From assembly GCA_036171555.1 (NCBI GenBank), contig JAVHRH010000069.1, positions 1-29,385 of the forward strand: a DNA stretch of 29,385 nucleotides, given 5' to 3'. How positions within the stretch are numbered: position 1 is the first letter of the stretch; each line of letters starts with the position of its first letter. The DNA is from Parcubacteria group bacterium (GTDB lineage: Bacteria > Patescibacteriota > Minisyncoccia > Minisyncoccales > JAVHRH01). Shown piece by piece: positions 14,580 through 18,991 of the stretch. Both the position numbers and the translations under genes were made by a program. The notes below the pieces were generated by a model that did not search any database, had not been told where the DNA came from, and worked only from the letters and a program-made list of their open reading frames with translations.

Positions 14580-14635
14580 CTCAAAGAGGACTTCGTCCTC
14601 TTTTCGATCTGCGCCGCGCCTAACGCGGCTTGCTA
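14580..14635 (-). repeat. Double-hairpin element, diverged copy A4 (contains the stop codon of the upstream gene)
   Basis: Minus strand: tagcaag-ccgcg-ttagg-cgcgg-cgcagatcgaaaagaggac-gaa-gtcctctttgag. Flanks and linker match A1-A3; the hairpin contents differ. Confidence 0.7.
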
Positions 14636-15201
14636 ATTAATTTTTTTTCTTTTTTGATCCGCTCAATAAGTTTCCTGACTAAAATTTTCGGGTCTTTTTC
14701 ATAAATTATCTTGTTGACGCCGCGGTAAGGAACCGTAATAATCTGTTTAATTTTATCGGCCGTACCGCCCGTTCCCTCCAAAACGCCAATCGGTTTTTGT
14801 ATTTCAAAAGCCGTGGCAAATTCATGCAAAGTACCAATACGGCCGCAGATAATAATAACGCCGTCGGCGGATTTTGTCATAATAATGTTTCTTCCGGGAT
14901 AATCGGCGCCGGTATAAATCATCACATCAAAAGGCTCTAACGGCAATTTATAGGTTTCCAAATGCGCTTTTTCCGAAGCAGCCGGCGAGAAGCCGATATT
15001 AAAACCATTTTCTTCTTCGCAACCCAAAGCCGCCAAATATGGGACTCCCGTCGTGGCACCAGTCACCAAGTTGCACTTTTGCCGAGCTATCTCCCGGCCA
15101 ACTTCTTTAGCAATTTCTTCAATGCCATTACAGCAGTGACCGATATCAGCGGCTCCTGAAACCACGATTTCGAATTTTTCTTTTTTAGCGTGATTCTCCA
15201 T
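14620..15201 (-). CDS. LOG/SLOG-family (Rossmann-like, TIGR00725-type) nucleotide-binding protein
   Basis: VVSGAA, LVTGATTGVP, GFSP, RNII...ADGVIII.GRIGTLHEF..A, KPIGVL.GTGG motifs. Confidence 0.8.
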   Translation of the reverse strand: MENHAKKEKFEIVVSGAADIGHCCNGIEEIAKEVGREIARQKCNLVTGATTGVPYLAALGCEEENGFNIGFSPAASEKAHLETYKLPLEPFDVMIYTGADYPGRNIIMTKSADGVIIICGRIGTLHEFATAFEIQKPIGVLEGTGGTADKIKQIITVPYRGVNKIIYEKDPKILVRKLIERIKKEKKLISKPR

Positions 15202-15545: not shown

Positions 15546-15620
15546 TGGTGCCCCTACTCTGAGTCGAACAGAGATTTCAACCTCCGGAGGGTCGCGCTTT
15601 ATCCATTAAGCTATAGGGGC
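15546..15620 (-). tRNA. tRNA-Arg(CCG), CCA encoded
   Basis: GCCCCTA/TAGGGGC acceptor stem, D arm, CGACC-CTCCGGA-GGTTG anticodon arm, CTCTG-TTCGACT-CAGAG T arm, ACCA end; 75 nt. Confidence 0.97.
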
Positions 15621-15625
15621 GAAAT

Positions 15626-16327
15626 TTATTTTCCCGCTACAATATAAATATTAGTTCTCGGATCTTTTCCCTCGCGCCAAACTTCTTTTATTTTGAATCC
15701 GGCTTCTTTGGTTAAACTTACAATTTTTTCTTTGGTAAAACAATGGAAATATCTTTGGACAACAACTTTTCCTTTATCATTTTTCCAGGGGACAAAAACA
15801 TCAAAAAAATCAAACTTTGTCTTGCCTAATAGTTTTAAAAAAGCGTATTTCAAAAAAAGCTTCCAACCTTCTTTTCTTTTCCAAAAATCCCAAACCCTTA
15901 ACATCAATATGCCTCCCGGCCGCAAAACCCTTTTCGCTTCTTTCAAATATCGAATTTGGAAATCTTTCGAAGGAATATTATGTAAAACGGAAATGCTATA
16001 AACCTTATCGAAAAAATTATCGGGAAATGGTAGATTTAAAGCATCGGCTATTTCAAACTTAGCTTCGGGATAACTTTTTTTGGCGATACCAATCAATTCT
16101 TCAGACGAATCTATCCCGAAATAATCTACTTTTTTATCTTTCAAAACGCTGAAAAATCGACCGCTGGCACAACCCGAATCTAAAATTTTATCGCTTTCTT
16201 TGGCGTAATCAGCTAATAATTTGATGTCTTCAGGGATAAAAGACCTTGTTCTGGTATAGTCTTTGGCGGTTAAATTATAATTTCTTCTGGTTTCTTCTAA
16301 CAGATATTTAGCGTAATTTATATCCAT
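15626..16327 (-). CDS. Class I SAM-dependent methyltransferase, Trm9/ALKBH8-like
   Basis: ILDSGCASGR (motif I), GIDSS, ADALNLPF, SISVLHN, DVFVPW and RYFHCF. Start set at MDINY (16327); the track's longer start lies antisense inside elp3. Confidence 0.8.
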   Translation of the reverse strand: MDINYAKYLLEETRRNYNLTAKDYTRTRSFIPEDIKLLADYAKESDKILDSGCASGRFFSVLKDKKVDYFGIDSSEELIGIAKKSYPEAKFEIADALNLPFPDNFFDKVYSISVLHNIPSKDFQIRYLKEAKRVLRPGGILMLRVWDFWKRKEGWKLFLKYAFLKLLGKTKFDFFDVFVPWKNDKGKVVVQRYFHCFTKEKIVSLTKEAGFKIKEVWREGKDPRTNIYIVAGK

Positions 16328-17870
16328 GAATGTCTTAGAAAAAGCAATTTTAGATTTAATCAAAACGAAAATTAAAGATTCCGATGGTTTGGCTTTGGCT
16401 AAAAGGAAAATGGCCAAAAAATATCGAACACAGTGTCCCTCCAATATCTCTCTACTCAAAATCTACCATGAATTAGCCAAAAAAGGAAAAATTAAAAAAT
16501 CGCTTAATTTTGAATCGCTTTTGAAAACAAGGCCGATCCGTTCGCTTTCCGGCATTGTCAATATCTCGGCTCTAACCAAACCTTATCCTTGCCCGGGGAA
16601 ATGTTTATACTGTCCGATTGAAAGGGGCATTCCCAAAAGTTATGTTTCCGGTGAACCGGCCGTGGAAAGAGCTAAAAAATTAAACTTTGATCCTTATTTG
16701 CAAACCAAAAAAAGAATTGAAATGCTGGAATCGGAAGGCCATCCGACAGATAAAATAGAGCTGAGAATTATCGGCGGCACTTGGAGTTATTATCCCGAAG
16801 CTTACCAAGAATGGTTTATAAAAAAATGCTTTGAGGCTTGCAACGAAAAAGCCGGCCAAACCCTGAAAGATGATCAAAAATTTAACGAGAGAGCAAAACA
16901 TCGAATGGTTGGCTTATCTGTTGAAACCAGGCCTGATTTTATCAATAAAAAAGAACTCGAACATTTGAGAGAATTGGGAGTCACCATGGTAGAATTGGGC
17001 GTTCAATCGATTTATGACGATATCTTGAAAAAGAACCTCAGGGGCCATGGCGTTAAAGAAACAATTTTGGCCACTAAACTGTTAAAAGATGCCGGGTTCA
17101 AGGTTTTGTATCAGATGATGCCAAATTTATTGGGCTCCAGTTTAAAAAAAGACGAAAAAATGTTCGAGGAATTATTCAAAAATCCCGCTTTTCAGCCGGA
17201 TTTGCTGAAAATTTATCCCTGCGCCTTATTAAAAACAGCTCAATTGTATCGCTCTTGGCAAAAGAAAAAATACCGGCCTTATACGGAAAAACAACTGATA
17301 AAACTGGTTGAAACGATTAAAAAGAAAATTCCTTACTATGTCAGAATCCAAAGGATCACCAGAGATATTCCTTCCAAAACTATTGTGTCAGGCCCGGCTA
17401 AAATTTCCAACCTGCGCCAAATTTTGCTTGAAGATATGGAAAAAAATAAATGGCACTGCCACTGTATCAGATGCCGAGAGATAAAAGAAAATTACGACCC
17501 GAAGGAAAAAATTTATCTTTTCAGAGAAAACTATTTGGCCTCAGACGGTCAGGAGATATTTTTAAGTTTTGAAAATAAAACCAGGTCAAAACTTTATAGT
17601 CTGCTTAGGTTGCGTCTTGCTTCCGACCGTCTAGCTGTCATCCGTGAACTCCACACTTACGGTCAACAATTATCAATTGGTCGAGGTTCGACCTCGACCA
17701 ATTCACCGCAGCATAAAGGATTGGGTAAAAAACTGATAAAAGAAGCCGAAAAAATTGCCAAAAAAGAATTTAAGATAAAAAAAATCAGCGTTATTTCCGG
17801 CGTCGGCGTCAGGGATTATTTCAGGCAACTGGGCTATAAATTAGAGAATACTTATATGGTAAAAAGTTAA
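16326..17870 (+). CDS. elp3: Elp3-family radical SAM/GNAT tRNA uridine(34) acetyltransferase
   Basis: CPGKCLYC cluster motif, GGTW, ETRPD, ELGVQS, RGHG, MPNL, PDLLKIYP, RITRDIP, CHCIRCRE, RELHTYG, QHKGLG and GVGVRDYF. Confidence 0.92.
   Translation: MNVLEKAILDLIKTKIKDSDGLALAKRKMAKKYRTQCPSNISLLKIYHELAKKGKIKKSLNFESLLKTRPIRSLSGIVNISALTKPYPCPGKCLYCPIERGIPKSYVSGEPAVERAKKLNFDPYLQTKKRIEMLESEGHPTDKIELRIIGGTWSYYPEAYQEWFIKKCFEACNEKAGQTLKDDQKFNERAKHRMVGLSVETRPDFINKKELEHLRELGVTMVELGVQSIYDDILKKNLRGHGVKETILATKLLKDAGFKVLYQMMPNLLGSSLKKDEKMFEELFKNPAFQPDLLKIYPCALLKTAQLYRSWQKKKYRPYTEKQLIKLVETIKKKIPYYVRIQRITRDIPSKTIVSGPAKISNLRQILLEDMEKNKWHCHCIRCREIKENYDPKEKIYLFRENYLASDGQEIFLSFENKTRSKLYSLLRLRLASDRLAVIRELHTYGQQLSIGRGSTSTNSPQHKGLGKKLIKEAEKIAKKEFKIKKISVISGVGVRDYFRQLGYKLENTYMVKS
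17675..17703. repeat. Perfect 13-3-13 palindrome inside elp3
   Basis: aattggtcgaggt-tcg-acctcgaccaatt, encoding part of SIGRGSTSTNS between RELHTYG and QHKGLG. Confidence 0.8.
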
Positions 17871-18991
17871 GCAGTTAGCTTTTGCAATCTCGCTTGAGCT
17901 TCGGTCTTTTCTTTAAGAGAAACGAGGCTCTTTTTTATTCCTCGCTCTATCACGGCTAAAGTTTTGTCATAAGTTACCCGGTCAACGAAATAAGGGGTGC
18001 CGTCTTTGCCTCCCACGGAAAAAGTGTATCTCGCCGGATCTTCATAAGAAGGTTTGGCACCATAAATTATCTCCGCTACCAAAGACAAAGCCCGGATGGT
18101 CTTAGGGCCGACGCCTTTTAATGACAGCATGTTTTCGAAATCCGGCGGTTTTTGGCTATTGACGGAAAAAATAGTTTTAGCCAATCTTTTCAAATCAAAT
18201 TTTTCGGTTAGGACTTTGTGCCAATGAAACTCTCGGTTTGGCAGAAACATCTGGGTCAGATTTTTTTCTCTTTTGGTTTGGATCAAGTTCATGTCATCAA
18301 TAAACTTGTTCGGCTCGTCTATAACTAAATCCAAAGAAACGTCTTTATTCTCGCGGCTGATTTTAGCCGTTAAATTTAAGGGAGATTCTTTCACTTGAGC
18401 CGCAATGCCCGCATGCGGTTCTTCGATGAAATCCGGTCCATTGCTTTTTTCTTTCATAATTGTTGATAGCCAGTGATAACGCCGGGCGGTCTGATTGTTA
18501 ATATTCATGCCTTGCTGGATAACCGCCCATTGGCCGGACTTGGTAAAGAGAAAATTATGCTGATAAATCTGATAGCCGGATTGGATTAGACTTGAGTCAA
18601 CTTTGGCCGCCATTTTGGAAGCATAAATCAATTTTGGCGCGAAAGACAACTGCCGGGAAACGCCGTAAGCTTCGATTTCCATTGGAGTCGCCCTCGCTTC
18701 TTTTTTGCCACCACAAACAAAAAGACCTAACCGGTCCTGAAGTTCAAAAAGGCCTGCTTTTAACGCCCCCAGCGTCGTTACGGTTAATCCTGAAGAATTC
18801 CAGTCAAAACCCATAACGCAACCCAAAGATTGAAACCAAACCGGGTCGGCCAATCTTTTTAGAAATTCTTCCGGCCCGAATTCTTCAACAATCGCGATGG
18901 CAATACCGCGACCCAATCTTTTCATTCTTTCAAAAAGCCAATGCGGGCATTTACCGTAATCAAGAGGAACCGTGGCAATACCTGTCCTCAT
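17867..18991 (-). CDS. DUF763-family protein
   Basis: G.A..PL..GKCP.WLF.RM, DP.WFQSLGCVMGFDWNSSGLT, QQGM, ARRYHW, GVGPKTIRAL.LVAE and DPARYTF..GGKDG.P motifs. Confidence 0.85.
   Translation of the reverse strand: MRTGIATVPLDYGKCPHWLFERMKRLGRGIAIAIVEEFGPEEFLKRLADPVWFQSLGCVMGFDWNSSGLTVTTLGALKAGLFELQDRLGLFVCGGKKEARATPMEIEAYGVSRQLSFAPKLIYASKMAAKVDSSLIQSGYQIYQHNFLFTKSGQWAVIQQGMNINNQTARRYHWLSTIMKEKSNGPDFIEEPHAGIAAQVKESPLNLTAKISRENKDVSLDLVIDEPNKFIDDMNLIQTKREKNLTQMFLPNREFHWHKVLTEKFDLKRLAKTIFSVNSQKPPDFENMLSLKGVGPKTIRALSLVAEIIYGAKPSYEDPARYTFSVGGKDGTPYFVDRVTYDKTLAVIERGIKKSLVSLKEKTEAQARLQKLTA

Follow-up and report, generated by a model that had tools for sequence, protein, structure and literature searches.

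A gene for a putative Trm9-type S-adenosylmethionine (SAM)-dependent methyltransferase, here called MT, lies head to head with elp3, the gene for a radical-SAM and acetyltransferase enzyme, in DNA of a Parcubacteria group bacterium (GenBank assembly GCA_036171555.1, contig JAVHRH010000069.1, positions 1 to 29,385; this stretch of 29,385 nucleotides (nt) is called the window below). We consider it likely, from the sequences compared here, that MT and Elp3 form an archaeal/eukaryotic-type module for modification of the wobble uridine (U34) of transfer RNA (tRNA) in a bacterium of the candidate phyla radiation (CPR), working independently of Trm112 and together with MnmA. Modification of the wobble uridine sets the reading of two-fold and four-fold codon boxes, and in the textbook and review view MnmE/MnmG are the enzymes of bacteria and Elp3/Trm9 those of archaea and eukaryotes. 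The source genome comprises 578 kb in 77 contigs, of which the window is contig C69, and is rated 94% complete. It belongs to an ultra-small groundwater bacterium, and relatives carry the source names Nealsonbacteria, Pacebacteria and Minisyncoccales, in line with Patescibacteria (CPR).

Family Membership of the Methyltransferase

MT is a class I methyltransferase by its Methyltransf_11 domain (Table 1). General libraries (Pfam, NCBIfam) gave it generic methyltransferase domains only, and no NCBIfam model reached its cut-off. When the single sequence was compared with all PDB sequences by phmmer, the best match was Trm9 of Yarrowia lipolytica (5cm2_Z, E 1.3e-13). The alignment with this protein also covers the C-terminal blocks (DVxVPW, RYYH), and other methyltransferases align on the Rossmann core only. 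The translation of MT contains YNLTAKDYTRTR, DSGCASG, ADALNLP, SISVLHN, DVFVPW, RYFHCF and a terminal IVAGK, so every motif quoted in the original prediction, which had been made from the letters of the window, is present; matching blocks in Yarrowia Trm9 read TRYKPW, SIAVIHH, DVMVPW and RYYHLY.

The family was then represented by an alignment (A1) of 45 members, drawn from 27 genomes of a phylum-wide sample and from 50%-identity cluster representatives, among which a search for the MT family had returned 271 sequences at E ≤ 1e-30. Against the PDB, the A1 profile again placed Trm9 5cm2 first (E 6.9e-30, 107 bits, profile positions 25–228 of 235), 20 bits ahead of the second-best match at 87 bits. 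An AlphaFold (AF2) model of MT built on A1 reached a mean predicted local distance difference test (pLDDT) score of 96.8, compared with 39 for an earlier single-sequence model. In a Foldseek search of this model against 550,129 Swiss-Prot models, Trm9 of S. pombe ranked first (E 6e-20), and ranks 1–9 comprised Trm9 (S. pombe, S. cerevisiae, Arabidopsis), ALKBH8 (frog, mouse, human, macaque, cattle) and an unnamed microsporidian methyltransferase. Their template modelling (TM) scores by query were 0.73–0.81 at just 17–24% sequence identity, with alignments beginning at residue 1, 2 or 14 and ending at residue 233. Demethylmenaquinone methyltransferases (MenG) followed from rank 10 (E 1e-16, TM 0.60–0.67). 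Among PDB folds, 5cm2 was again on top, and some family members already carry the label "TRM9" in the automatic annotation of the Joint Genome Institute (JGI).

These comparisons support the original likening of MT to Trm9/ALKBH8, and we take MT to be a Trm9 orthologue. Membership rests on the PDB and Swiss-Prot comparisons because no tree with eukaryotic Trm9/ALKBH8 could be built: searches of the representatives library and with an archaeal profile returned prokaryotic, mostly unnamed proteins only, and no eukaryotic Trm9/ALKBH8.

Active-Site Residues

In yeast Trm9, alanine changes at R29, D72, H116, W145, W168, R241, Y243 and N271 abolish or strongly reduce activity, so that these residues are required for binding of tRNA or for catalysis, and Y18, R29, H115/H116, W145, R241 and N271 have been modelled around the carboxyl group of 5-carboxymethyluridine (cm5U) and the uracil ring (Letoquart et al., PMC4678810). 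By alignment, yeast Y18, R29, D72, H115/H116 and W145 correspond to Y17, R28, D73, H116/N117 and W146 of MT, and W168, R241, Y243 and N271 to W181, R192, F194 and N226. A1 shows no variation at R28, W146 and R192 and at least 90% conservation at Y17, D73, H116 and N226; position 181 is W or F. The SAM-binding motif I (DSGCASGR) and the SAM-binding Asp (D73) are both present. Equivalent residues were also found in archaeal and Chloroflexota members.

The position of N117, which in yeast is the catalytic His (H116), varies across the family. It is Asn in 90 and His in 29 of 120 close relatives (at least 63% identical to MT), and His in 133 of 144 distant relatives and in all archaeal and Chloroflexota members; the two variants coexist among relatives 63–76% identical to MT. 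As the rest of the active site is invariant in the Asn lineage, we read Asn as a lineage feature and a substitution that would be tolerated.

Elp3 and Its Linkage to the Methyltransferase

Both genes lie where the original prediction had placed them, and the full Elp3 that it described is complete, with the entire radical-SAM and lysine acetyltransferase (KAT) architecture above the curated cut-off: 543.9 bits against NCBIfam TIGR01211 (cut-off 350), over model positions 5–520 of 522. The radical-SAM motif with the FeS cysteines lies at residue 89 (CPGKCLYC) and the acetyl-CoA motif at residue 462 (QHKGLG). Matches of the protein among solved structures included Elp3 of M. infernus (6iaz, E 3e-135), of Dehalococcoides (5l7j, E 8e-109) and of eukaryotes, and it is nearer to the archaeal M. 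infernus enzyme than to that of Dehalococcoides (455 vs. 368 bits).

Co-occurrence with elp3 across genomes, the lack of which would have counted against the original prediction, proved strict. It was assessed in 401 genomes spread evenly over Patescibacteria, a strong MT match being one of 97 bits or more. Elp3 was above the cut-off in 148 of the 401 genomes. Other genomes with a strong MT match numbered 68, covering 32 GTDB families, and every one of them had Elp3 (68/68). Both genes were on one contig and no more than 3 kb apart in 66 of the 68, within about 400 bp in 60, and always divergent; these adjacencies were counted by hand from two tables, and related genomes are not independent, with the families widely spread. 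In the two exceptions, G250 and G108, MT and elp3 are on separate contigs. About 21 weaker MT matches (52–82 bits) also had divergent elp3 neighbours, and the pair occurred in roughly 88 of the approximately 150 Elp3-positive genomes of the sample.

A second, independent collection was scanned with a narrower alignment (A2), A1 being too diverse for a contig scan, and yielded 80 loci. The 5-kb flanks included elp3 in 51 of these, divergently in 47. The 51 loci include Chloroflexota (Ca. Aquidulcis, Anaerolineales, Caldilineaceae), Fermentibacteria and one crenarchaeon, where the MT gene and elp3 lie on one strand and overlap. Several of the remaining 29 loci end at contig edges, and a whole-genome search of MT genomes without adjacent elp3 found Elp3 elsewhere in 10 of 10 (seven above the cut-off, three below it or in pieces). 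The pairing of MT and elp3 is thus far beyond chance; the pair is widespread in Patescibacteria and is also found in Chloroflexota and archaea. In one member of the Aggregatilineales (Chloroflexota), the MT domain is fused to TrmB, the tRNA m7G46 methyltransferase, in a single 574-aa protein (PF02390, E 1.6e-40), which independently points to tRNA as the substrate of MT.

A quick maximum-likelihood tree of 106 sequences, rooted on a single long outgroup branch and used descriptively only, placed MT within a CPR clade of 54 rows nested among archaeal sequences (support 99 in the Shimodaira–Hasegawa-like approximate likelihood ratio test, SH-aLRT). A second bacterial clade (Chloroflexota, Fermentibacteria and a few CPR; 16 rows) was found elsewhere in the tree with a support of 100. 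The placement of the CPR methyltransferases agrees with the closeness of the window Elp3 to the archaeal rather than the Dehalococcoides enzyme.

The Predicted Wobble Pathway in the Source Genome

The original prediction had also pointed to mnmE/mnmG and a Trm112-like partner as genes to look for. MnmG and MnmE were not found in the source genome at its 94% completeness (best scores 16.5 bits for MnmG, cut-off 525, and 21.8 bits for MnmE, cut-off 253). In the 401-genome sample, MnmG was found in 11 genomes, 10 of them above the cut-off, and none of the 11 had a true Elp3. The search for Trm112 (PF03966) gave no match in the source genome even at E ≤ 1, and none of five relatives with a completeness rating of 100% yielded one above the cut-off; the Pfam model has only 40 positions, so a very divergent partner could escape it. 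MT would have to work without this activator.

A bacterial MnmA is encoded on contig C54 (388 bits, cut-off 237). Aragorn predicted 46 tRNA genes, 11 of them with U34, including those for Lys(UUU), Gln(UUG), Arg(UCU), Gly(UCC) and Leu(UAA). A gene for tRNA-Ile(UAU) lies on contig C70 (Table 1), and a search of the whole genome, 94% complete, for TilS and other PP-loop proteins of the ATP_bind_3 type (PF01171) found none. Given these two observations, a U34 tRNA probably reads AUA; how this tRNA is modified, possibly in an Elp3-dependent way, would be important for keeping it off AUG.

An Alternative Partner of elp3

In Elp3-positive genomes without MT, the neighbour of elp3 was often an AsnB-type PP-loop enzyme of about 270 aa (PF00733, SGGxDS motif) that has no glutaminase part and aligns with the synthetase half of E. 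coli AsnB only (Table 1). Small AsnB-like copies of this kind adjoin elp3 in 6 of 6 cases in the 401-genome sample and in four more on metagenome contigs; other small copies, for example at L148, are away from elp3. This enzyme is a candidate for the amidation of cm5U to 5-carbamoylmethyluridine (ncm5U). In CPR genomes of family f35 (L005, L006, L016), which have Elp3 but no MT, the gene divergent from elp3 encodes a nucleoside diphosphate kinase that is extended at its N-terminus.

Proposed Function and Alternative Explanations

The predicted function of the MT family is that of a tRNA (carboxymethyluridine34-5-O)-methyltransferase. Elp3 alone, as in archaea, would use SAM and acetyl-CoA to place a carboxymethyl group on C5 of tRNA U34, giving cm5U, as its family membership suggests. 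MT would bind SAM and methyl-esterify the carboxyl group of cm5U to give 5-methoxycarbonylmethyluridine (mcm5U34); homology, the substrate-binding residues and the strict linkage all argue for this step, which would proceed without the Trm112 that was not found in the genome. MnmA would add a 2-thio group (s2) on some tRNAs, for example Lys(UUU) and Gln(UUG). The predicted end product, made without Trm112, is accordingly mcm5U34 or its 2-thio form mcm5s2U34, the latter because the bacterial-type MnmA is present. The module would stand in for MnmE/MnmG. The compact two-gene system of eukaryotic or archaeal style that was originally proposed is therefore supported by homology and linkage but corrected in three respects, namely that no Trm112-like partner was found, that MnmA is present and that the pair is widespread.

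Several points weigh against this reading. To our knowledge, all characterised Trm9 enzymes require Trm112, which had no match in the source genome. The family tree contains no eukaryotic Trm9 sequence. About 40% of the Elp3-positive genomes in the sample are without such an MT, so methylation would not be obligatory after Elp3. Yeast Y243 is replaced by Phe (F194) in MT and yeast H116 by Asn (N117), and the yeast H116A variant is inactive (PMC4678810). The Elp3 of Dehalococcoides, the sole bacterial Elp3 assayed, had very weak activity (PMC7663514).

The substitution at H116, shared by MT and 90 of 120 close relatives, also bears on the possibility that MT is derived from Trm9 but has another role: it might act on a different Elp3-dependent intermediate or at another tRNA position or, in the Asn-117 lineage, be a non-catalytic tRNA-binding partner of Elp3. 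Consistent with this are the missing Trm112, which known Trm9 enzymes need for SAM binding, and observations in Haloferax volcanii, where the cm5U intermediate was not seen and unknown derivatives exist (PMC6144793). We nevertheless regard such a role as unlikely. The SAM motif and D73 are intact and no other substrate residue varies within the Asn lineage, which argues for a working site under selection; Asn would be able to donate and accept the hydrogen bonds that the yeast study assigns to H116, and the His and Asn variants coexist among relatives of similar identity to MT.

It is very improbable that MT is a generic Methyltransf_11 enzyme acting on small molecules (UbiE/MenG-like or similar) that stands beside elp3 by chance, even though the general libraries name generic domains only, some source annotations call relatives "UbiE", and MenG entries come soon after in the Foldseek ranking. 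MT scored 46.1 bits against the UbiE/MenG model TIGR01934 (cut-off 158.35), all PRK00216 models were far under theirs, and alignments of the UbiE/MenG type stop at about residue 145, within the Rossmann core, without the C-terminal Trm9 blocks PW, RYxH and N. Clustering with UbiE had been raised at the outset as a possible objection; MT groups with Trm9/ALKBH8 instead. The strict and ancient linkage to elp3 across phyla is incompatible with chance, and one family member is fused to TrmB. Least probable is a reading in which Elp3 acetylates proteins or serves another purpose and the pair is unrelated to tRNA. Elp3 was once described as a histone acetyltransferase, but current structural and biochemical work on archaeal, bacterial and eukaryotic Elp3 assigns it to cm5U34 formation (PMC6367351, PMC13315578). 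Moreover, no genome of the 401-genome sample has both a true Elp3 and MnmG, and the conserved partners of Elp3 are enzymes suited to carboxyl-group chemistry.

Beyond the wobble-uridine module of the window, a wider proposal can be put forward tentatively, as possible rather than probable. Patescibacteria and some Chloroflexota would make mcm5U34 and mcm5s2U34, so far known from eukaryotes and archaea only, by a hybrid route of stand-alone Elp3, a Trm112-free Trm9 and bacterial MnmA, and the slot divergent from elp3 would be filled by one or another of several exchangeable enzymes that modify the carboxyl group of cm5U. These would be mostly of the Trm9 type and elsewhere AsnB-like, the latter being the long-missing enzyme that amidates cm5U to ncm5U.

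Gene Layout and Neighbouring Genes

The two divergent start codons share the sequence CATG (Table 1). The homologues place the true start of MT at the ATG at 16327 (233 aa), because 233-aa homologues match end to end; a longer open reading frame (ORF) from the upstream TTG at 16459 was rejected, as these homologues cover 100% of the protein. Full-length homology backs the ATG starts of both genes. Across 39 related loci from many families, with homology-guided starts, the median start-to-start spacing was 3 bp and the identical 2-base CATG overlap occurred in eight, a comparison in which the choice of starts was steered by the proteins of the window and may be biased. Either the promoters of MT and elp3 must be located within the partner gene, or the transcripts must be leaderless. 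Promoter and terminator scans gave counts not above those of shuffled sequence. When RNA-seq evidence for transcription starts at the CATG was sought, the sequence turned up in DNA runs only, all of them from groundwater metagenomes. The head-to-head layout with almost no spacer suggests coupled expression.

A tRNA-Arg(CCG) gene with the orientation of MT begins 5 nt past the MT stop codon, and the two may share a transcript; this tRNA is not a predicted substrate because its nucleotide 34 is C. Two genes beyond MT lies a gene for a SLOG cluster-4/TIGR00725 protein. A gene of this type is found downstream of MT in eight of the closest loci (L064–L081 set), and in genome G013 one lies between elp3 and the AsnB-like gene. 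Its proximity may be mere local synteny. On the other side, elp3 faces a convergent gene whose product scores 394 bits as a DUF763 protein and has a helix-hairpin-helix motif; the two stop codons overlap by 4 bases. This gene recurs in the three closest loci only. The DUF763 and Mur ligase genes beyond elp3 were considered as parts of the module and dropped, as their recurrence is limited to the closest relatives.

Table 1. Positions of the genes and features discussed, in the window unless a contig or locus is named.
Feature	Position	Strand	Size	Basis or remark
Trm9-type SAM-dependent methyltransferase (MT) gene	15626..16327	-	233 aa	ORF; Methyltransf_11, E 9e-21; Trm9 matches
elp3 gene, radical-SAM + acetyltransferase enzyme	16326..17870	+	514 aa	ORF; TIGR01211
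CATG common to both divergent start codons	16325..16328			Sequence; no intergenic DNA left
tRNA-Arg(CCG) gene	15546-15620	-		
SLOG cluster-4/TIGR00725 protein gene	14620-15201	-		
DUF763 protein gene	17867-18991	-		394 bits
tRNA-Ile(UAU) gene	C70:3639-3713			
MT–TrmB fusion, Aggregatilineales	L132:5001-6725	+	574 aa	PF02390
AsnB-like gene	L007:1106-1921	-		Beside elp3
AsnB-like gene	L022:5719-6534	+		Beside elp3
AsnB-like gene	L010:3036-3824	-		Beside elp3
AsnB-like gene, genome G013	L004:2454-3305	-		Beside elp3
SLOG cluster-4/TIGR00725 gene, genome G013	L004:3277-3837	-		Between elp3 and AsnB-like gene
Further AsnB-like loci	L144, L173, L181, L182			

Significance and Comparison with Known Systems

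More than one third of the sampled Patescibacteria genomes have Elp3, MnmG is rare among them, and most Elp3 carriers keep a linked Trm9 orthologue. Bacteria carrying the pair probably decode with a "non-bacterial" tRNA modification. If the proposed function is correct, mcm5U would join the bacterial modification repertoire, and MT would be a natural Trm112-free Trm9 that helps explain why an activator is needed elsewhere. The two genes would also make up a compact system with which mcm5U could be installed in E. coli, and would inform the relation of the CPR translation apparatus to the archaeal one. Full-text literature searches brought up no description of a Trm9 in bacteria or of Elp3 in Patescibacteria. 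According to a 2020 review, Dehalococcoides is the single bacterial clade with Elp3, and no cm5U derivatives (xcm5U) have been shown in bacteria (PMC7663514); a 2026 paper states that "numerous bacteria" have Elp3. Its presence in 148 of 401 sampled Patescibacteria is a far wider spread than the 2020 review states.

The nearest structural neighbours of MT are yeast Trm9-Trm112 (S. cerevisiae, Y. lipolytica 5cm2) and animal ALKBH8-TRMT112, which have the same fold. MT shares with them the N-terminal Y..TR helix, the HH loop and the W, PW, RYxH and N blocks that surround the methyl group of SAM, and the upstream enzyme, Elp3, is common to these systems and to the locus described here. In contrast to yeast Trm9 and ALKBH8, MT is a stand-alone protein of 233 aa, without the yeast insertion and without AlkB or RNA recognition motif (RRM) domains, and its gene is divergently paired with elp3. 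It further differs in that no Trm112 gene was found and that H116 and Y243 are replaced by Asn and Phe.

Among archaea, Trm9 of H. volcanii (HVO_1032) makes mcm5U together with Trm112, and an elp3-trm9 cluster was noted in Sulfolobus in 2008 (PMC6144793). The locus resembles these systems in combining a prokaryotic stand-alone Elp3 with Trm9, and the key residues of MT are present in the archaeal homologues. It differs in that archaeal Trm9 needs Trm112 in vivo and in that the source bacterium has MnmA instead of thiolation of the Ncs6/Tuc1 type. The Elp3 of Dehalococcoides mccartyi (5l7j) is likewise a stand-alone bacterial enzyme, whereas the window Elp3 keeps a longer basic N-terminus and is nearer to the archaeal enzyme. 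With the MnmE/MnmG route (with MnmC), finally, the proposed module has in common that C5 of U34 is the target and that MnmA cooperates in 2-thiolation, but the enzymes and their chemistry are unrelated, and the source genome, in which MnmE/MnmG were not found, would rely on Elp3 and MT in their place.

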